Notes: a model not told the origin generated them from the letters alone. DNA of 64,000 nt from an uncultured Candidatus Saccharibacteria bacterium (GCA_965230955.1 OZ246404.1:33184-97183), one strand, 5' to 3'. Positions 3,186 to 51,794 are shown, counted from the first letter of the stretch. Program-made: numbers and translations.

Positions 3186-3968
3186 ATGTTGCTTCAGGAT
3201 ATTACCCAACTCGGATTCAAAGAAAAAGAAGCCAAGGTCTACTTGGCTCTTTTTGAAATCGGCGAGGCGACCGCCCAGGCCATTGCCAGAAAAGCGTCCG
3301 TCAATCGACCGACCACTTATTTTTATCTTGACGAACTGAAAAAGAAAGGTTTGGCTAAAATAATTCGGCGCCAGAGCAAAACTTTGTTTTTTGCCGCTCC
3401 GCCGCAAGCGCTAAAAAAATATTTACAGCAACGGGCCCGCGCGGTCATCGATTTGCAGAAAAGGCTGAGAGAAGTGGCTCCCCAACTGGCGGATTTGTAC
3501 CAGCGCGCCGGCGTCAAACCGAAAATCAAGCTTTTTGAGGGACGCCAGGGTTTGCTCAGTATTTATGAGGATTTGGCCAAAGTCGATCCGGACAAAGACG
3601 GAGAAATATTCACTTTTACTTCGCGGCAATACGTGATCGATCAATTTCCGGAAACGGTTACGACGATGGAGGAACAGCGGGCCAAAAGGGGCGTTTGGGT
3701 GCGTTCCATTTACTCCCAATTGCCCGGCGAAAAATTGTTGTCCAGCGGCGAAGATAAAAAATACTTGCGAACATATGTTACGGTGCCGTCGGATAAGTTC
3801 CCCTTCTCGGGCAGTGTCCATATTTATCAAAACAAAGTGGCTTTTATCGCTTTGCGCCGCAAACTGGTCGGCGTCGTCATTGAAAACAGCAACGTCGCCA
3901 ATACTTATCGAACTATTTTCCGGCTGGCCTGGCAAGGCGCGCTGGCGTTACAAAAAAAACATGATTGA
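3186..3968 (+). CDS. TrmB-family HTH transcriptional regulator
   Basis: N-terminus LGFKEKEAKVYLALFEIGEATAQAIARKASVNRPTTYFYLDELKKKGL matches the TrmB HTH pattern. Confidence 0.7.
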   Translation: MLLQDITQLGFKEKEAKVYLALFEIGEATAQAIARKASVNRPTTYFYLDELKKKGLAKIIRRQSKTLFFAAPPQALKKYLQQRARAVIDLQKRLREVAPQLADLYQRAGVKPKIKLFEGRQGLLSIYEDLAKVDPDKDGEIFTFTSRQYVIDQFPETVTTMEEQRAKRGVWVRSIYSQLPGEKLLSSGEDKKYLRTYVTVPSDKFPFSGSVHIYQNKVAFIALRRKLVGVVIENSNVANTYRTIFRLAWQGALALQKKHD

Positions 3969-5010: not shown

Positions 5011-5634
5011 TCAGTTATATAAAGGGATAGTTAATGACATTGTCGCGGTTGGGAGATTGGTATTGACCGCTGTTTTAACGTCGGCCGGTGCAGTATTTGA
5101 CGCGCCTATGCCATGAAAAGCCAGGTCGGTGACATTAATTACCGAGGGAAGATTCTCCACTTTTTTCAACATAGTCAGCAAATTAGGCCAGGCGCCGGAC
5201 AGTACCAGCTGTAATTTAATTTCTTTGGTCGGGGTTTCTATCTTTTGAGCCGAGTTTTTTTGGTCGGGGGTGGCGGTCGATGCCGGGGTGGTTTTTTTGT
5301 CATCTTGTCCCTGGACGGAGAGCTGAGCGCTGACCCCGGTATCACTGGCGATACGCTCCAAGTTTTCGATCAAGGTAATGACCGTGCCGTCGGTTACCGC
5401 GGCTTTTTTCAGGCGATCGGCACTTTCTTGGTACTGGTCAAAAGTTTTTTGTTGCTGGCCGACTGTTGATTTTTTTTGCAGGGTATCAATTTCCGATCGC
5501 TCGCGCTGTATCGTCGCGATTTGACCGGTGATCTGCTGAATGCGCGGGAGAATCCACAAAAACAGCGCGGCGGCGATAATCGCCCCGGTGACTACGGCAC
5601 TGATCCAGAGATTTTTTGCTTTATTTAGAGGCAT
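5011..5634 (-). CDS. pilO: type IV pilus assembly protein PilO-like
   Basis: N-terminal TM, coiled-coil, gene order pilM-pilN-pilO. Confidence 0.55.
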   Translation of the reverse strand: MPLNKAKNLWISAVVTGAIIAAALFLWILPRIQQITGQIATIQRERSEIDTLQKKSTVGQQQKTFDQYQESADRLKKAAVTDGTVITLIENLERIASDTGVSAQLSVQGQDDKKTTPASTATPDQKNSAQKIETPTKEIKLQLVLSGAWPNLLTMLKKVENLPSVINVTDLAFHGIGASNTAPADVKTAVNTNLPTATMSLTIPLYN

Positions 5635-6190
5635 TGCGGTATGGGAAAAGAGAATTATTCTTTAGCTTGATGGTGATAACGAAAGGGATGTTTTCTTTAA
5701 CGACGATGTTGGAAAGCGGTGAATCAACCGATTCGATCAGGGGTTCAGCCTTGAGTGACTCAATGGTCTGAATTAAAACATCGCGGGTCGCGGCCACGCC
5801 CTTGATCTCGATTTTTGCTTCCTTCATTGATCCGGTGGCTTCAGTCCAGGTCACTCCGGCGGGGGAAAGCGACACTAATTTTTCCAAAACCGGAGTCCAG
5901 GCCGGTTGGTTGTTGAAAGCCCCGTCAAAAAATGTCAGTAATTTATTTAACTCTTCCATCTTGGCATTGACCTGGCCGGTGGCGCTGTCGCGTTGCTGGC
6001 TTTTCAGCGTGGCCAATTGCTGATCCAGAATATCTTTATTGAGGGTGACGATTTGTTGCATGCCCCAAACAAATCCGCTGACAATCAGAACGGCTAAAAT
6101 TGCCAGGCTGGCGCCAATAGTCGCCAGTCGGATGCTTTTCTCCGTTTGGAGATATTTTTTTTCGCTGGCGGGAAGAAGATTGGTTTCCAT
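5621..6190 (-). CDS. pilN: type IV pilus assembly protein PilN-like
   Basis: N-terminal TM plus periplasmic domain, directly downstream of pilM. Confidence 0.6.
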   Translation of the reverse strand: METNLLPASEKKYLQTEKSIRLATIGASLAILAVLIVSGFVWGMQQIVTLNKDILDQQLATLKSQQRDSATGQVNAKMEELNKLLTFFDGAFNNQPAWTPVLEKLVSLSPAGVTWTEATGSMKEAKIEIKGVAATRDVLIQTIESLKAEPLIESVDSPLSNIVVKENIPFVITIKLKNNSLFPYRNASK

Positions 6191-6192
6191 GG

Positions 6193-7308
6193 CTAGATAT
6201 TGAAATTTAAACCGCGCAGAGCCAGACCGATCACCGCGGTGAAACTGAGCGAATCAGAGCTGGAAATGGGCGGTAATTCCCGACTCCCCTGGGGGTAGAT
6301 ATTGGCCCAAGGATTGGCGAGACGGGTCGGCAGATCGATATTTCTGGTAAACCAGTCGACCAGTCCCTGTAAACGAGCGGTGCCGCCGCTGAGCAGGATC
6401 AGATCGACTTGTTTATCGGGTAGAGCCGAGTGTTCTTGGTAATAACTGATCGTATTTTGTATTTCGACGACGATATCATGCAGGGCGTCTTCAATCGCTG
6501 CCTTTATTTCCGGGGTTTGCTTGTCGGATGTGAGTCCGTAAGTGATTTTTGCTTTTTCCGCTCCGCTGAAATCCAGTCCGGTTTTGTCCATGATTTTCTG
6601 GGAAATAGTCAGTCCGGCCAGAGAAATGCTGGAAGTAAAATTTATCACGTTGTTGTTGACGATGGTCAGTCCGGTCCGATTGGTGCCGATATCGACCAGC
6701 AGGACCGTTTGTTTATGCAACTCGGGAGAAATACAGCTCCGGGCAATCGCAATCGATTCACTTTCCAGTGCGACCGGTTGGAGTTTCGTCATTTTTAGTA
6801 CTTGAACTATCGGATTGATGACATCTTTCGGCGCGGCGGTCATAAATACTTTCCAGCCGTGCTCGCGAGCGGCCGTTTTTTTCCCGAAAAAAGATAATTT
6901 TCCCGGGGCGTCGGGAGGATTGAGAGTTTGCCAGTCCATTTCAACCTGATCGATCGATAGTGGAATATGTTGTTCGGCTTCCCATTTGACCGCGGCCGGC
7001 AATTCCGTCTCTTTCATCGGGGGCAAGTCAAATAAACGTATAAAAGATTTTGATTCCGGCAAGGAGGCGACTACATGAGCATTGTTAAAACCATGCGGTT
7101 TGGCGTTATCGATTACGTGACGAATAATACCGCTGAGCTTGGCTGGTTCTTTGATTTCATCTTTAGTCACCAGTCCTCGGGGAAAAATTTCAGCGTTAAA
7201 GGCCAGAGGACGGATAATCTTGCCCTGCTGTTGGAGTAGCATGATTTTTACCGAAGAATCACTGATGTCCAGTCCGAAACAATGAATTTTCTGTGAGCCG
7301 AATGACAT
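6193..7308 (-). CDS. pilM: type IV pilus assembly ATPase-fold protein PilM
   Basis: actin-like PilM pattern (GLDISDSSVKIMLL, DIGTNRTGLTIV). Confidence 0.8.
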   Translation of the reverse strand: MSFGSQKIHCFGLDISDSSVKIMLLQQQGKIIRPLAFNAEIFPRGLVTKDEIKEPAKLSGIIRHVIDNAKPHGFNNAHVVASLPESKSFIRLFDLPPMKETELPAAVKWEAEQHIPLSIDQVEMDWQTLNPPDAPGKLSFFGKKTAAREHGWKVFMTAAPKDVINPIVQVLKMTKLQPVALESESIAIARSCISPELHKQTVLLVDIGTNRTGLTIVNNNVINFTSSISLAGLTISQKIMDKTGLDFSGAEKAKITYGLTSDKQTPEIKAAIEDALHDIVVEIQNTISYYQEHSALPDKQVDLILLSGGTARLQGLVDWFTRNIDLPTRLANPWANIYPQGSRELPPISSSDSLSFTAVIGLALRGLNFNI

Positions 7309-31433: not shown

Positions 31434-32009
31434 ATGAATCTCATTCCAACTGTCATCGAAAAATCAAGCTTCGGCGAACGCGCCTACGACATTTATTCCC
31501 GCTTGCTCAAGGATCGTATCATTATGCTGGGCGGCCCGGTGGATGACGACGTGGCCAATATCATTATCGCCCAGATGCTTTTTCTGGAAAGCGAAGACAA
31601 GACCAAGGACATACATTTTTACATCAATAGCCCCGGCGGATCGGTCACGGCGGGTTTGGCGATTTATGACACAATGCAGCATATCAAGCCAAACGTTTCT
31701 ACGATCTGCGTCGGTCTGGCGGCTTCCATGGGCGCTTTCCTTTTGGCGGCGGGACACCCGGGCAAGCGTTTTGCTCTGCCGAACTCCGAGATTCTGATTC
31801 ATCAAGTCATGGGTGGAGCCGAGGGTCAGGCGGTTGATGTCGAGATTCGCGCGCGCCATATGATTCGTATCAAGGAAAGATTGGAACGGCTCTTGGCAAA
31901 GCACACCGGCCAACCCTTGAAAAAAGTGGCCGATGATACCGACCGCGACTATCACATGGACGCGGAAGAAGCGCGGAAGTATGGGATTATTGATAAAGTA
32001 TTAAAGTAA
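31434..32009 (+). CDS. clpP: ATP-dependent Clp protease proteolytic subunit
   Basis: ClpP fold with [14 protein letters not shown] active-site Ser region. Confidence 0.95.
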
Positions 32010-32125
32010 TTCAAAATTCAGAATTCAAAATGCAAAATCAGGGCGGGCGACAGGGCTCGCCCTTTGTGTTTGACAATCAATAGAGTAAGGGTAAGATGGG
32101 GGCAGCAACCTCAGGAGGTGAAAGT

Positions 32126-32365
32126 ATGAAATGGAAACGACGGATTTTGTTGACTCTAGGCTGCCTATTTCTTGCCGCCGCCATAATCGTGCTGGGAATT
32201 TCCGGGATATATTCCGAATTTGGCATGAGAGGGGAAACTCTGAAATATCTGGCGATCGCGGTGGGATTGGTGGCGATTTGTCTCGGGCTTGCCTATTGGG
32301 GAGATGATATTCGAATCGTTAAACCTGATCCACCAGTTAATCGAGCCAAGCCGAAATCAATCTAG
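32126..32365 (+). CDS. 79-aa two-TM membrane protein (AGGAGGTGAAAGT RBS)
   Basis: RBS and TM helices. Confidence 0.5.
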   Translation: MKWKRRILLTLGCLFLAAAIIVLGISGIYSEFGMRGETLKYLAIAVGLVAICLGLAYWGDDIRIVKPDPPVNRAKPKSI

Positions 32366-32469
32366 CAGTCTGTGCATCTCAAAGCCTTGATGTCTCATCA
32401 GGGCTTTATTATTGACAAAGGAATTTCGTATGCGATACTAAAATCAAACTTGTCAGAAAAGGAGGATCA

Positions 32470-32569
32470 TATGCCGAGGCGAATTAAGGACGAAAAGTAT
32501 TATCCAATGGCTCGCCCGGATGACCAGGACAGAATTACTTCAGCCAACTCCGTGCCAGCTGATGATTGA
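32470..32569 (+). CDS. 32-aa acidic peptide MPRRIKDEKYYPMARPDDQDRITSANSVPADD
   Basis: AAAGGAGGATCAT-ATG strong RBS; followed by the terminator at 32578. Confidence 0.35.
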
Positions 32570-32577
32570 TAATCAGT

Positions 32578-32700
32578 GTCGGCACAGCGCTTCCTTCCGG
32601 AGGCGCTTTTTATATTACCGTCAGGAATCGGCCTTATTTTATTTTCTTGACAAGAAAGTAGATACTCGCCATACTGCTCTAAACCCTAGCCGAAAAGGAG
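32578..32700 (+). promoter_or_regulatory. module 1: terminator hairpin AGCGCTTCC-TTCC-GGAGGCGCT-T5, promoter TTGACA-17-CATACT, RBS AAAAGGAGG
   Basis: near-identical module repeated at 33351. Confidence 0.6.
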
Positions 32701-32706
32701 GCTGAT

Positions 32707-33330
32707 ATGGCAAAAGGTTGGAAAACTCTGGTGTTAGTGGGTTGTATGGTATTGATATTTTCGCTTATGCTTTGGCGGGCAGGTGTTGGTTCGATCGGTG
32801 AGCCTGACAAGTCTGCCATAAAATTCCACAACGATGTCATCTTTCTTGGTTTAATCCCTTTCCTTGTACCGGTTCTCTGGCTGTCATTGATTCACATTGC
32901 TCACCGCCGGCCCCCGATGTGGATACCGATTGTATGTATTCTGGTCTATCTTCTTGTGTCCTCTGTCTTTTACACCGGCGGCCAGGAAGTTGTCTTTGTG
33001 CAGAATGGGCAGGTCAAGACGGTCTGTCTGGTTACCCCTTTTCTCAGTGAATTGCAGGCGGTACCGGTACACTATGTCATCGAGGCGGAATGTTGTCCGG
33101 AACAGCCCGGGAAGATAGGGGCTCGACTGGATTTCTACCCGGATCGTTCACTCTGGACACAATTTGAGCCGGTCGCGATTCGGAAAATTTTTCAGACGAA
33201 AGTCGAGAAAAGTTTATCGGAGGTTTCCGATGTTGATTGGAAAAGCCTGGATCGCCTGAAAGATGATCTGTTGCAAGTGCCCGAAAACTTACCCGGAAAA
33301 ATCAAAGTACAAGTCACCGTATCAATGTAA
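32707..33330 (+). CDS. 207-aa membrane protein (three TM plus soluble C-domain), N-terminus MAKGWKTLVLVG
   Basis: strong RBS; paralogous N-terminus to the next gene. Confidence 0.6.
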   Translation: MAKGWKTLVLVGCMVLIFSLMLWRAGVGSIGEPDKSAIKFHNDVIFLGLIPFLVPVLWLSLIHIAHRRPPMWIPIVCILVYLLVSSVFYTGGQEVVFVQNGQVKTVCLVTPFLSELQAVPVHYVIEAECCPEQPGKIGARLDFYPDRSLWTQFEPVAIRKIFQTKVEKSLSEVSDVDWKSLDRLKDDLLQVPENLPGKIKVQVTVSM

Positions 33331-33350
33331 ACGAGGTGATCAATTTGAAA

Positions 33351-33435
33351 ACAGCGCTTCCTTCCGGAGGCGCTTTTTATTTGACAAAGGTCATTTTTGT
33401 GCAATACTGAGCTCAAACAATGCCATCAAAGGAGG
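33351..33435 (+). promoter_or_regulatory. module 2: the same terminator hairpin, TTGACA-16-AATACT promoter, AAAGGAGG RBS
   Basis: AAAACAGCGCTTCCTTCCGGAGGCGCTTTTTATTTGACAAAGG matches the 32576 module. Confidence 0.6.
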
Positions 33436-33440
33436 TATTC

Positions 33441-33953
33441 ATGGCAAAAAAATGGATAGCACTGGTAGCTATAGCGGTTTTGTTTTCTCTTGTGACATTA
33501 GGGTGGCGGGTTTTTCTGAGGCCGCTGATTTTTCCAGAAATTGAATCGGCCAGTATCTTGGCGTGGGTAATCGACATTGGTTTGGGATCACTGATGATGC
33601 TTATGTTTATCGGATTAATGATGTACATTGGCATTCTGGATGCGTGGAAAAATGATCGGTTGACCCTGGAAAAAGAATTACTCCGTCGGGCCGAGAGAGC
33701 GCGAACTTTGGCCGGCCAGTCTCTAAAGGGTTTTGAGCAAGTGACCCTCTCGGATCTCGGCGGTCAGACAGACGATGCGGGAAATCTCTATGTGATATTT
33801 CATCATGGCATGGAGAGTCTCCTGATCCGTGGTCGGTCCTGGAGGCACCAGCTATTTGGCCGACCCAAGGCGCGAGAGGTCAATGTAACGTTGTCTGATG
33901 TTGGCCTGGTACATCCGGTCCAACAGGAAGTGCGTGTACGTAGCGGACTATGA
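33441..33953 (+). CDS. 171-aa membrane protein (three TM plus soluble C-domain), N-terminus MAKKWIALVAIA
   Basis: RBS; N-terminal paralogy with the 32707 gene. Confidence 0.6.
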   Translation: MAKKWIALVAIAVLFSLVTLGWRVFLRPLIFPEIESASILAWVIDIGLGSLMMLMFIGLMMYIGILDAWKNDRLTLEKELLRRAERARTLAGQSLKGFEQVTLSDLGGQTDDAGNLYVIFHHGMESLLIRGRSWRHQLFGRPKAREVNVTLSDVGLVHPVQQEVRVRSGL

Positions 33954-34083
33954 AAAGTGGACCATTATCTCTTGCCGGCAGCCGGCAGGTATAATGGTCC
34001 TTTTACATTTGACAACAAAAAACGGCGGTGCTAGAGATATATCCAACGGTCTTGTTTTTTCACCGAAGCAAAGGAGGAAAGCG

Positions 34084-34614
34084 ATGAAGATGTGGTGGAT
34101 ATGGGTTATATTGGTATCGGTCACGGTTTCTGCCGGAGATTGTCCCAGAGAAAGAGCGATCACGGCGCTGTTTCCTGACCTGTCGGCGGAAGTTTTGCAA
34201 GAAGTTTGCGCCGGGCTGGAGGGTAACAAACAGTTGAATAATTTGCTGGGTCAGGCTCGCCGGGCAAAAATGGATGATTGGGGACGAGTAGTGATCAAAC
34301 TGGCTTATCTGGACAATTTGCGCCGAACGGTAAAAAAGACGGTGGAAAACGTGCCTGACAGCGGGGAGCTTCCGCTTGAAAATCAGCGCTTTTTCCAGAA
34401 AGTCACCGATATTTTCGCCCATCTGCAGAAAGACTGGATCAGAGCGCTTGGCCAGAGTAGCCTGATCAAACACCGACCGGAAGACTGCAGGGCAAGTCGT
34501 GAAGTGCTTTCATCTGAGTGTGTCGAGGAATATCGGCTTTTGAGTCTCAGTCTGAAATCATTTATCGGACAACAAGCCGATTTGGCCGCCGCTCATATCA
34601 AAGTTGGGCGTTGA
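34084..34614 (+). CDS. 176-aa secreted/signal-anchored protein (MKMWWIWVILVSVTVSAGDC...)
   Basis: CAAAGGAGGAAAGCG-ATG RBS; signal peptide-like N-terminus. Confidence 0.5.
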   Translation: MKMWWIWVILVSVTVSAGDCPRERAITALFPDLSAEVLQEVCAGLEGNKQLNNLLGQARRAKMDDWGRVVIKLAYLDNLRRTVKKTVENVPDSGELPLENQRFFQKVTDIFAHLQKDWIRALGQSSLIKHRPEDCRASREVLSSECVEEYRLLSLSLKSFIGQQADLAAAHIKVGR

Positions 34615-34632
34615 ATCAGTGAAATCGATGTG

Positions 34633-34668
34633 TTCTCCTCTGGAAACGGGGGAGAATTTTTTTTGGCG
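34633..34668 (+). terminator. terminator TCTCCTCTGGAAACGGGGGAGA-ATTTTTTTT
   Basis: hairpin plus T8. Confidence 0.7.
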
Positions 34669-34684: not shown

Positions 34685-34996
34685 TTGACGCTAATCCTGG
34701 GCTGGGGTAATATGGGAACAGGAATTTATCCTCCTTCGCCCGCCGGTCGGTGGGCTACGAAGGACTTTGTCAGTTAATTTTCGGTGTTTAGCGTGTTGGT
34801 CGGAGATACGGAAGTTAGTCTTATTTAAACTTTTTTCTCCTTGGAGAGCCAAAATAGCAATTCGCCCCTTTACTGGTCGGGATAGCTCTCCCTACAAAAC
34901 ACAATGTCACTCTTTATCCGTCAACTTGAAGCGGAAATCTAATTACGCCCTGCGGGCGGGTTTTAGAGTAGACGACACCGAGCAACCTAAATTTTT
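34685..34996 (+). promoter_or_regulatory. rny promoter (TTGACG-17-TAATAT) and about 280-nt leader ending in hairpin CGCCC-TGC-GGGCG-GGTTTTA just before the start codon
   Basis: hexamers and hairpin seen directly; no protein-like ORF in the leader. Confidence 0.45.
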
Positions 34997-36526
34997 ATGG
35001 AAACCATTATCGGGATCATCTTAGGTGTTATTGGTATTGCTGTTGGCGCCGGAATCGGTTATGCGGTTCGCCAAAGTTTGGCTAAAAAATCGGTGGACAG
35101 CGCCGAAGCCAAAGCAGAAAAACTGATTGAAGAAGCCAAATCAAAGCAAAAAGAACTCTTGCTCGAGGCCAATGAAAAATCAATCAAAGTGATTGAAGAA
35201 GCCAAAAGCGAGGAAAAAGAACGTCGTAATCAATTGATAGAAATCGAGCGGCGGGTGGAACGTCGGGAAGAATTGATCGATCGCAAGTACGATGAACTGG
35301 ATAAAAAAGATCAAGAGCTGAATCAGCGCTTGCAAAAAGCGCGCGATGTCCGCAAGGAATTGGATGAAATCCGCCTCCAACAATTGGCCAAACTGGAAAA
35401 GGTAGCCGGTTTGTCGCGCGACAAAGCGAAAGAATTGATGCTGGAACTGACGGAGAAGGATATGAAAGATCGTTTACTGAAGCGTATCCGTCAATTGGAA
35501 GCGGAAGGCGAAGAAGCCTTCGAAGAAAAATCACGCGAAATTCTGAATCTGGCGATCCAGCGGATTGCCACTTCGCACACTTCGGAATCGACCGCCACGA
35601 CGGTGGCTTTGCCCAACGATGAAATGAAAGGCCGGATTATCGGACGCGAAGGTCGTAATATCAAAGCGCTGGAAACATTGACCGGCGTTGAAATCGTGGT
35701 TGATGATACGCCGGAAGCGATTGTTATTTCCGGTTTTAATCCGATTCGCCGCCAAGTGGCCAAGATGGCTCTGGAAAAATTGATGGCCGACGGTCGGATT
35801 CATCCTTCCCGGATTGAAGATTCGATTATCGAAGCCAAAAAAGCGATCGCGAAAAATATCAAAGAAGCCGGCGAAGCGGTGGTCTATGATGTCGGTATTG
35901 CCGGAGTCGATCCGAAATTGGTCAGTTTGCTGGGACGCTTGAAATATCGCACCAGCTACGGCCAAAATGTTTTGAAACATTCTTTGGAAGTCGCCCACAT
36001 TTCCCGCATCTTGGCGGAAGAATTGGGGGCGGACGTGACTATTGCCAAAACCGCCGGTTTGTTCCATGACATCGGCAAGGCGGTTGATCATGAAATTCAG
36101 GGCACTCATATTGAAATCGGCCGCGATATTCTGAAACGCTTTAGTTTCGATGAAAAAGTCATCCACGCGATCGAAGCTCATCATGAAGATGTCCCGTGCA
36201 AATCGGTCGAAGCGATAATCGTCAAAGTGGCTGATGCCATCTCGGCTTCTCGGCCCGGCGCGCGCCGCGACTCTTATGAAGAATATATCAAGCGTCTGGA
36301 AGATTTGGAGAATGTAGCGCTCTCTTTCCCGGGTATCGAAAAAGCCTACGCCATTCAGGCCGGTCGCGAAGTGCGTGTCTTTGTCCAGCCGAACGAAATT
36401 GACGATTTCGGCGCCCAAAAGATTGCACGCCAAATCGCCGACAAAGTTGAAGCCAATCTGAAATATCCCGGTGAAATCAAAGTGACCGTCATCCGCGAGA
36501 TGCGGGTGGAAGATTACGCCAGATAA
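34997..36526 (+). CDS. rny: ribonuclease Y
   Basis: N-terminal TM, coiled-coil, KH domain GRIIGREGRNIKALE, HD domain HDIGKA. Confidence 0.95.
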   Translation: METIIGIILGVIGIAVGAGIGYAVRQSLAKKSVDSAEAKAEKLIEEAKSKQKELLLEANEKSIKVIEEAKSEEKERRNQLIEIERRVERREELIDRKYDELDKKDQELNQRLQKARDVRKELDEIRLQQLAKLEKVAGLSRDKAKELMLELTEKDMKDRLLKRIRQLEAEGEEAFEEKSREILNLAIQRIATSHTSESTATTVALPNDEMKGRIIGREGRNIKALETLTGVEIVVDDTPEAIVISGFNPIRRQVAKMALEKLMADGRIHPSRIEDSIIEAKKAIAKNIKEAGEAVVYDVGIAGVDPKLVSLLGRLKYRTSYGQNVLKHSLEVAHISRILAEELGADVTIAKTAGLFHDIGKAVDHEIQGTHIEIGRDILKRFSFDEKVIHAIEAHHEDVPCKSVEAIIVKVADAISASRPGARRDSYEEYIKRLEDLENVALSFPGIEKAYAIQAGREVRVFVQPNEIDDFGAQKIARQIADKVEANLKYPGEIKVTVIREMRVEDYAR

Positions 36527-46573: not shown

Positions 46574-46659
46574 AAAATAATTAATAATTCAGAATTCAAA
46601 ATGCAAAATCATTTTTTACGCTACCGGGATAATCAAATTTGAAACAGATATAGGCAAAA

Positions 46660-49879: not shown

Positions 49880-50086
49880 CCTACGCCCCTCGGGAAACCT
49901 CGGGGCTTCGGCGGGCAGGCCCGTTTGGGCGCACCAGCCGAAAATAAAAATACCGGAAACTAGGCTTATTATACGATTTTATTAGAGAGATTGTCAAAAG
50001 GCTGGAAGTCGCTAGAATGTAGTTATGAAAGCAATTTTGCATTTTGAACTTGCTTGCGCAAGCAAGTTCTGAATTTTGAATTATTT

Positions 50087-51536: not shown

Positions 51537-51698
51537 GTCGAACTCCGCGCAAAATCAAGGATGATGCACCGCTGGATAAATACGGCGGGAGTATCGCTAC
51601 CGTGTTGGGCGCCGGGGCGGCTATCTGGGCCTTTTTCCGAGTGGCTTTTACCATCAGCGACGGCGTGGCCAAATTGAAAAACGGCCGCAAGAAGTAAT
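51534..51698 (+). CDS. 54-aa small TM protein overlapping the methyltransferase stop (ATGA)
   Basis: ATGA overlap; TM segment GAGAAIWAFFRVAFTI. Confidence 0.3.
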
Positions 51699-51794
51699 TC
51701 AAAATTCAGAATTTAAAATGCAAAATGGGGGGATAGCGAATTATTTTGCATTATGAATTATGTATTTTGAATTTTAATAGGGAGGGCTTTTTTT

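Follow-up and report, generated by a model that had tools for sequence, protein, structure and literature searches.

Flexible genomic islands that carry cell-envelope genes between core genes have been described as the cell-wall island of Haloquadratum walsbyi (PMC4535781) and in the genome variation of Salinibacter ruber (PMC6060240), and hypervariable genomic islands are named in passing in the methods for refining metagenome-assembled genomes (MAGs) of a study that includes TM7 genomes (PMC7739484). We analyzed a 64,000-nucleotide stretch from an uncultured Candidatus Saccharibacteria bacterium (GCA_965230955.1 OZ246404.1:33184-97183, hereafter the window), in which ORF (open reading frame) analysis places five small plus-strand genes, g1 to g5, in an interval of about 3 kb between the conserved housekeeping flanks clpP and rny. 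At a probability of roughly 65%, this interval of a 1.14-Mb Candidate Phyla Radiation (CPR)/Patescibacteria genome is a fast-turnover, lineage-specific accessory-gene islet.

Set beside what the accounts of flexible islands describe, the clpP-rny slot has the same conserved syntenic flanks with content that differs between close relatives, predicted membrane or secreted products of no assigned function, and dispensable genes, with pseudogenes and deletions in relatives. It differs from them in its size (0-3 kb), in the lack of glycosyltransferase, S-layer, or O-antigen genes, in having a consensus promoter and terminator for each gene, in its single resident ORFan family, and in its CPR host. 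The kind of locus is known, a flexible accessory-gene islet, and what is new are its clade-restricted families: the g3 type, the 127/129-amino-acid (aa) type, and the g5 type.

Slot contents across relatives

The five genes and their flanks lie as follows in the window; TM denotes transmembrane.

31434..32009, plus strand: clpP, left flank of the slot (Pfam CLP_protease, E = 5.7e-83; protein 96-98% identical to those of close relatives)
32126..32365, plus strand: g1, 79 aa, two TM helices, ORFan (the gene callers' start at 32096 gives 89 aa)
32471..32569, plus strand: g2, a 32-codon hydrophilic ORF of uncertain coding status
32707..33330, plus strand: g3, 207 aa, three TM helices and a conserved C-terminal domain of ~115 aa; conserved core gene of the slot
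33441..33953, plus strand: g4, 170 aa, probable chimera
34084..34614, plus strand: g5, 176 aa, N-terminal signal-like segment and helical domain
34997..36526, plus strand: rny (RNase Y), conserved right flank, from a Pfam-family scan and relatives

The gene order cdaA-ybbR-clpP, slot, rny-ymdB is conserved, and the closest relatives by RNase Y are uncultured MAGs labeled "uncultured bacterium," Ca. Saccharibacteria, or Patescibacteria. Using L-numbers for loci or contigs of relatives and P-numbers (P0009, P0010, and P0011) for homologous proteins in them, the slot holds the following.

L003 and the more distant CPR loci L007, L013, L036-L042, L044, and L057: empty, with clpP adjoining rny
L066/L067 (ClpP 88%, RNase Y 77% identical): one g3-family gene (P0010)
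L002/L033/L034: two unrelated small genes, in L002 as an exact 840-bp tandem duplication
L026/L029 plus L001 (composite; RNase Y 93-94%): 99-aa gene, g3, 129-aa gene, 297-aa g3 paralog, g5-like gene
L064/L032: paralog A, paralog B (P0011), 127-aa gene, g5
L059-L061 (RNase Y 92%): decayed 99-aa gene, one paralog, 3' remnant of g5

Gene count in the slot is therefore 0, 1, 2, or about 5 among relatives, with pseudogenes and tandem paralogs, and the variation in copy number that the first-pass annotation of this DNA had suggested looking for is present. Conserved syntenic flanks enclose contents that differ between close relatives, gene decay included. Because contents differ across lineages, the slot is, judged by sequence comparison, a hotspot where genes have been gained, duplicated in tandem, fused, degraded, and deleted, and the g3 family is its long-term resident. 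The 127/129-aa and g5 families travel with the g3 family, and only this genome has g1 and g2. Three 100%-identical Logan contigs from other runs of one run series have the same arrangement as the window, and a metagenome scan with rny recovered no relatives closer than those already known.

If position were held by function, the genes might form a membrane module of adaptors or regulators for ClpP proteolysis or for membrane-anchored RNase Y. The g3 family is kept in the slot across lineages diverged to 77% RNase Y identity, and the order g3 family, 127-like gene, g5, rny recurs, as such coupling would predict, but several sister lineages have clpP directly adjoining rny and close relatives have decayed or deleted the genes. 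Each gene is also insulated by its own terminator and promoter, and no domain ties any of them to protease or RNase function, making a coupled module rather unlikely.

Several relatives preserve details of individual events. In L059 the 99-aa gene is broken into fragments (5410-5745) with its C-terminal reading (..VGWFEAVGRWFRSILRKII) still recognizable, and just the last ~25 codons of the g5-like gene are left (6503-6660; ..VLKQYIGRCQGESGGPYQG..). The 840-bp duplication of L002 (7493-9170) spans the last ~82 nucleotides (nt) of clpP, a 73-aa two-TM gene, and a gene of ~96 aa; L033 and L034, which are as close to the window in RNase Y and ClpP identity as L002 is, have a shorter slot that fits one copy only. 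This duplication is either a strain-level event or an assembly artifact.

Orthologs of g3 form five clusters at 67-81% identity among 5.8e9 proteins, and a profile search of 1.84e9 representatives returned three matches, the ortholog cluster and the distant P0010 and P0011. The family combines three N-terminal TM helices with a ~115-aa domain ending LPE[NR]L.G.I. The C-terminal domain shows 84-88% identity between orthologs and a ratio of nonsynonymous to synonymous divergence (dN/dS) of 0.23-0.38, and the N-terminal TM region shows 45-70% identity and a dN/dS of 0.5-1.15. By these measures g3 is a real gene whose conserved part is the C-terminal domain, which is under purifying selection. That domain is predicted to be extracytoplasmic, and Cys107, Cys129, and Cys130 are invariant among orthologs. 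All family members with readable context lie in the clpP-rny slot or adjoin it, some alone and others as tandem paralogs (L064 and L029 plus L001). An AF2 model of g3 built from 6 sequences reached a pLDDT of 44.7 and was unusable for fold search.

The synonymous divergence (dS) between the window's g3 and that of L026 is ~0.76 in the N-terminal TM region and 0.23 in the C-terminal domain, and C-terminal values in some pairs of the window with L026 or L020 are about 0.23-0.36. This threefold contrast within one gene suggests a mosaic history with recombination inside g3.

Mosaic recombination of this kind is one hint that the locus might be a contingency or antigenic-variation locus, in which paralogs with constant 5' ends and diversifying C termini are switched or exchanged at the cell surface. 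Mycoplasma vsp/vlp, Chlamydia pmp, and Borrelia paralogous families are tandem variable surface-protein genes with conserved 5' ends, and the first-pass annotation had likened the five genes to variable surface or polymorphic membrane protein loci. The likeness extends to tandem g3-family paralogs in relatives, a shared 5' module and N-terminal anchor with differing downstream domains, a promoter for each gene, gene content that differs between close relatives, and g3 and g5 domains predicted to face outward.

Yet of three hallmarks of such loci that we looked for, variation of gene number and content between related strains is the one present; this genome has neither several paralogs with constant N termini and hypervariable exposed C termini nor a switching device. 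The exposed domain of g3 is its conserved part, this genome has a single full family member, and g3 and g4 share only ~48 N-terminal residues. The locus lacks a lipobox, invertible promoters, C-terminal repeats, and inverted repeats around promoters; promoters and 5' coding regions hold no repeat tract beyond an A7 run, and all that Tandem Repeats Finder (TRF) reported from the locus was AATTCAA x4.4 outside genes and a short hairpin repeat. Silent cassettes lacking a promoter are absent, the neighbors include neither a recombinase nor an invertase gene, and the three identical contigs from other runs have an unchanged arrangement. A contingency locus is on this evidence quite improbable, and the comparison with polymorphic surface loci was not sustained.

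The segment carrying g1 and g2 (32019-32567) has no counterpart in relatives; its left bound is the AATTCAA repeat and its right bound the extra copy of a hairpin described below. We considered here a remnant of a mobile element, whether an integron-like cassette array, a prophage moron block, or an insertion bounded by miniature inverted-repeat transposable elements. Like an integron array, the locus is a row of short, mostly ORFan cassettes between hairpin-forming repeats with strain-variable content; a genome-specific dispersed repeat lies exactly at the left junction of the g1-g2 segment, and g1, whose Pfam matches are all sub-threshold, includes among them a weak holin-like one (E = 0.02). 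In contrast to integrons, with their intI, attI, and promoterless attC-bounded cassettes, these cassettes have their own promoters, and the hairpins carry U-runs and stand beside promoters as terminators do, unlike attC sites. No integrase, transposase, phage, or other recombinase gene lies among the neighbors, blastn gave no match to phages or plasmids, and there was no significant PHROG or PADLOC match. GC content of the interval is the same as in the flanks, and the g3 family is vertically fixed in the slot. A mobile-element origin is highly improbable.

Similarity was absent between g1 and the two candidates for its kin, the 99-aa gene after clpP in relatives and the 73-aa gene of L002, and both were ruled out. 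The g5 homologs lie just 5' of rny in every case, at 53-55% identity (P0009 and L064) or 32-37% identity (L001), and the four g5 cysteines, C20, C42, C135, and C146, are kept in the 53-55% identical set; the product is probably secreted. The AF2 model of g5 is helical and confident (pLDDT 82, pTM 0.79), and comparing its fold with PDB and BFVD turned up nothing at E < 0.7. For all five proteins and the three family alignments, hits in Pfam, NCBIfam, PHROGs, and PADLOC stayed below threshold, as did those from PDB by sequence or profile, and Rfam had nothing in the locus at gathering or E-value threshold. Instead of the single-copy orthologs of known function that the first-pass annotation had named as a refuting outcome, g3, the C-terminal part of g4, and g5 have syntenic homologs with no assigned function.

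Expression signals and duplicated modules

The five genes appear to be monocistronic from their sequence signals, each following the succession of hairpin terminator, TTGACA box, consensus Shine-Dalgarno, and ORF. The control elements of the slot are listed here in order; T* designates a terminator present in two copies.

32040..32063, plus strand: terminator after clpP (-18.6 kcal/mol), U-run behind
32070..32097, plus strand: promoter-like site P1 (TTGACA-16-TAAGAT), from promoter scoring
32381..32407, plus strand: terminator after g1 (-15.9 kcal/mol)
32412..32439, plus strand: promoter P2 (TTGACAAAGG..TGcGATACT), duplicate of P4
32568..32615, plus strand: upstream copy of T* (hairpin 32586-32607), present in this genome only
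32647..32675, plus strand: promoter P3 of g3, orthologous to the g3 promoter of relatives; similarity to relatives resumes at 32637-32664
33336..33383, plus strand: downstream copy of T* (hairpin 33353-33374), the ancestral copy, kept in all relatives
33381..33408, plus strand: promoter P4 (TTGACAAAGG..TGcAATACT), abutting the U-run of T*
33959..34000, plus strand: terminator after g4, a long hairpin (-28.5 kcal/mol)
34009..34014, plus strand: TTGACA -35 box before g5, without a good scored -10 box
34632..34657, plus strand: terminator after g5, from hairpin folding

By folding, each of the six intergenic gaps has a stable hairpin with a U-run behind it, at -15.6 to -28.5 kcal/mol and z-scores between -3.5 and -6.2, and all six have the sequence and predicted fold of intrinsic terminators, a G+C-rich stem-loop with a U-run 3' of a stop codon. 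TTGACA occurs 31 times on the two strands of the window, and five of these copies fall within the ~2 kb of the locus, on the coding strand and one per gene (Poisson P = 1.5e-4). We scored sites as sigma-70 type when a -35 TTGACA was separated by 16-18 nt from a -10 box whose second and sixth positions are A and T. P1 to P4 qualified, each at 10/12, with an extended TG in P2 and P4; at g5 the -35 box alone was detected, and the gene is absent from the list of scored promoter-like sites.

Ribosome-binding sites (RBSs) are equally regular. AAAGGAGG directly precedes g2, g3, g4, and g5, four of its seven copies in the window being in the locus, and g1 uses AGGAGGTGA. The strong RBS that the first-pass annotation had assigned to each gene is there, as is the contrast it drew with the tightly packed surroundings, visible both in signal density and in a coding fraction of about 67% for the clpP-rny interval. 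Its gene set needs one small correction, in that the fourth of the five small ORFs encodes 170 aa and not 171. Signals this close to consensus suggest that the cassettes may be highly expressed.

Parts of these signals are copies of one another. The 22-nt hairpin AGCGCTTCCTTCCGGAGGCGCT occurs in two exact copies in the window, at 32586 and 33353, where 0 are expected, and shuffled sequence gave zero matches even at up to 3 mismatches. Around it the exact repeat runs to 30 nt (32584-32613 = 33351-33380), flanking g3, with weaker similarity to about 48 nt. TTGACAAAGG is found in the window only at 32412 and 33381, and P4 is most similar to P2; local alignment of the two promoter regions scored 39 against a shuffle null of 17±2.2. 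The part of g4 that begins at the -10 box, includes the RBS, and ends at codon 12 aligned with the corresponding stretch of g3 at a score of 29 in this genome and 34 with the ortholog in L025 (null 19±2.3). The regions upstream of g1 and g5 have the same consensus elements and gave null-level scores; they act as internal negative controls, and the promoter/RBS consensus alone is thus insufficient to explain the module matches.

The same controls bear on whether there was any true duplication, as opposed to convergence of consensus signals (terminator, -35/-10, Shine-Dalgarno, a "MAK" start, and a hydrophobic helix) in unrelated small genes. Many matching bases do belong to functional elements, BLASTP of g3 against g4 is not significant (E = 0.88), and an unrelated TM segment beat g4 on the family hidden Markov model (HMM). 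A 30-nt exact repeat, however, cannot arise convergently, TTGACAAAGG with its flanking matches is exclusive to P2 and P4, and the N terminus of g4 matches g3 orthologs and not other TM proteins. For the hairpin and P2/P4, convergence is in large part refuted already, and as an account of the locus it is very improbable.

In every relative the T* hairpin occurs once, 3' of g3. Since the copy at 32568-32615 resembles this terminator downstream of g3 in relatives, it is the upstream copy that is derived, either by gene conversion of the hairpin GAAGCGCTTCgggacGGAGCGCTTC that precedes the relatives' g3 promoter or by replacement of the neighboring segment. The duplicated modules had been described as near-identical units of terminator, promoter, and RBS. 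Local duplication is borne out for the hairpin, for the promoters of g2 and g4, and for the 5' untranslated regions (UTRs) and first codons of g3 and g4. Spacing differs, with P3 starting 40 nt past its hairpin and P4 abutting its own, and the closest match of P4 is P2. They are not generic terminators found everywhere, the modules being unique in the window and the hairpin single in each relative.

Composition of g4

Residues about 55 to 165 of g4 are 39-42% identical to the 127/129-aa proteins encoded 3' of g3-family genes in relatives (E from 1e-12 to 1e-16; alignments start at 55 or 70), with the second TM helix of g4 aligning to their single one. A word-index search with g4 returned g4 itself only, and these homologs came solely from tblastn on relatives' loci. 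Nothing in the 127/129-aa proteins corresponds to the first ~48 residues of g4, which resemble the N termini of g3 orthologs, with the pattern MAK.W...WRV.L.P.I...ESA. Smith-Waterman scores against the orthologs were 42-55, compared to about 31±6 for a null that preserved segments in shuffling (p = 0.006-0.03), and the same test gave no similarity to paralog subfamilies or other small TM proteins.

Taking the N-terminal likeness together with the colinear DNA match of the 5' UTR and first codons, g4 is best read as a probable chimera, in which a g3-like TM module makes up residues 1 to about 48 and a whole protein of the 127/129-aa family residues about 50 to 170. The body is predicted to have one TM helix and a cytoplasmic domain. 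The added helix would turn an N-out protein with one TM into an N-in protein with two, leaving the C-terminal domain cytoplasmic. As in chimeric genes formed by partial tandem duplication and in-frame 5' fusion, g4 would join a duplicated 5' module of its upstream neighbor to a preexisting body with predicted topology preserved; it differs from them in having an uncertain donor, g3 or a lost g3-family paralog, and in being an event inferred from one genome. Paralogs A and B were rejected as donors of the N terminus, to which they have no protein similarity, just a 17-nt 5' UTR identity in the case of paralog B.

These results recast what had been described as paralogs sharing an N terminus, with duplicated and diversified cassettes. 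The shared N terminus of g3 and g4 is likely homologous but, with a nonsignificant BLASTP match, not proven. Their C-terminal parts are unrelated, as had been stated, and there is module duplication with one chimeric gene. Full paralogs with diversifying C termini they are not; conservation in g3 is highest in the C-terminal domain, at 84-88% between orthologs where variation had been anticipated, and the body of g4 belongs to a separate 127/129-aa family with syntenic homologs.

A side observation concerns the A7 run at 33447-33453, across codons 3-5 of g4 (GCAAAAAAATGG). It is too short for a slippage tract and is unchanged in two 100%-identical Logan contigs with full-length g4 (L022 and L023).

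Flanking sequences and a proposed mechanism

Two further features border the genes of the slot.

32008..32038, plus strand: AATTCAA x4.4 repeat (TRF), left edge of the segment without counterpart in relatives
34685..34996, plus strand: rny promoter (TTGACG-17-TAATAT) and conserved 5' leader of ~280 nt, right flank of the slot

DNA similarity to relatives ends at 32018. The repeat there is one of a dispersed set with 7-nt periodicity (AATTCAR AATTCAA AATGCAA AAT) that matches 13 times in the window, against 0.34 expected, and is absent from all relatives' loci. Copies lie outside long ORFs at 32008-32038, 46579-46609, 50034-50082 (minus strand), and 51696-51773; two begin at a TAA stop, and the two at 51696-51773 make a long AT-rich inverted repeat. 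Three Logan contigs start at the clpP end, and strain heterogeneity was rejected as the reason: their starts lie inside the dispersed repeat, so that an assembly break is the simpler cause. The same may apply to contigs ending at T* (L020 and L021). Contig L027 ends (3800-3849) in Illumina adapter (AGATCGGAAGAGCGTCGTGTAGGGAAAGAGTGTAG) right after the g3 terminator, an assembly artifact in the public record.

The rny leader (34715-34996, ~280 nt) is conserved in close relatives, at L001 1385-1661 (76% identity), L059 6725-7000, and L031 1425-1701. RNAalifold predicts a multihelix structure closed by UUCGGUGUU/GACGACACCGAA, with compensatory changes in 6 of 60 pairs, and CGACACCG just 5' of the rny start codon is kept even in the more distant L002/L033. 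Rfam gave no match to the leader, which a short conserved ORF reading overlaps (..LNFRCFPCLSE..KL..IKLFS). Possibly the leader regulates RNase Y.

For an accessory-gene islet in the slot, we propose that the short terminator, promoter, RBS, and anchor modules supply microhomology for recombination, gene conversion, and partial duplication. Recombination between modules would drive the gain, loss, duplication, and fusion of cassettes, and its own signals would keep each cassette expressed wherever it was placed. In one such event the 5' module of g3, comprising its promoter region and RBS and the ~48 codons for the first TM helix and loop, would have been copied in frame to the front of a gene of the 127-aa type, giving g4. 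The products may be abundant small envelope proteins, the domains of g3 and g5 facing outward and possibly disulfide bonded and that of g4 facing inward. Their role could be a dispensable one in the envelope, specific to niche or partner, such as host-cell contact or phage-receptor turnover in an episymbiont.

Several points weigh against this account. What identifies the promoters and terminators is their match to consensus, topologies were calculated simply, from hydropathy and the positive-inside rule, in place of a dedicated predictor, and the envelope or host-interface role is one we purely infer. At the protein level the homology of the g3 and g4 N termini rests on p of about 0.01-0.03, and the family N-terminus HMM gives g4 9.6 bits, rank 2 of 160 TM N termini, with an FtsH TM segment above it by chance. 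The 5' UTR of g4 shares 17/17 nt with that of paralog B in L064, making another donor possible. More than one direction and order of the duplication events fits these data, and the searches for repeats and motifs, further repeat copies included, covered 64 kb of the genome. Neither g1 nor g2 has a detectable homolog in relatives or in the retrieved data; g2 is not present in the protein collection and is possibly noncoding, in which case the ~165-nt unit from P2 to its terminator could be a small RNA.

A bolder form of the proposal, which we consider unlikely, is that the g3, 127-like, and g5 families make up an undescribed envelope module of one CPR clade at the interface of symbiont with host or phage, diversified at a fixed slot as self-contained terminator, promoter, RBS, and anchor modules recombine and so duplicate, fuse, and delete cassettes. 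The locus would then be a contingency locus that works by shuffling of expression modules without a recombinase.

CPR/Patescibacteria genomes are small and rich in uncharacterized small membrane proteins, which are thought to mediate an episymbiotic lifestyle. As a fast-turnover islet, the clpP-rny locus would be a compact example of how small genes turn over in such a genome, with a fixed slot, a resident ORFan family, module duplication, a probable topology-preserving chimera, and rapid loss in sister species. It overturns no current view, and it yields concrete candidates for envelope or host-interface proteins.

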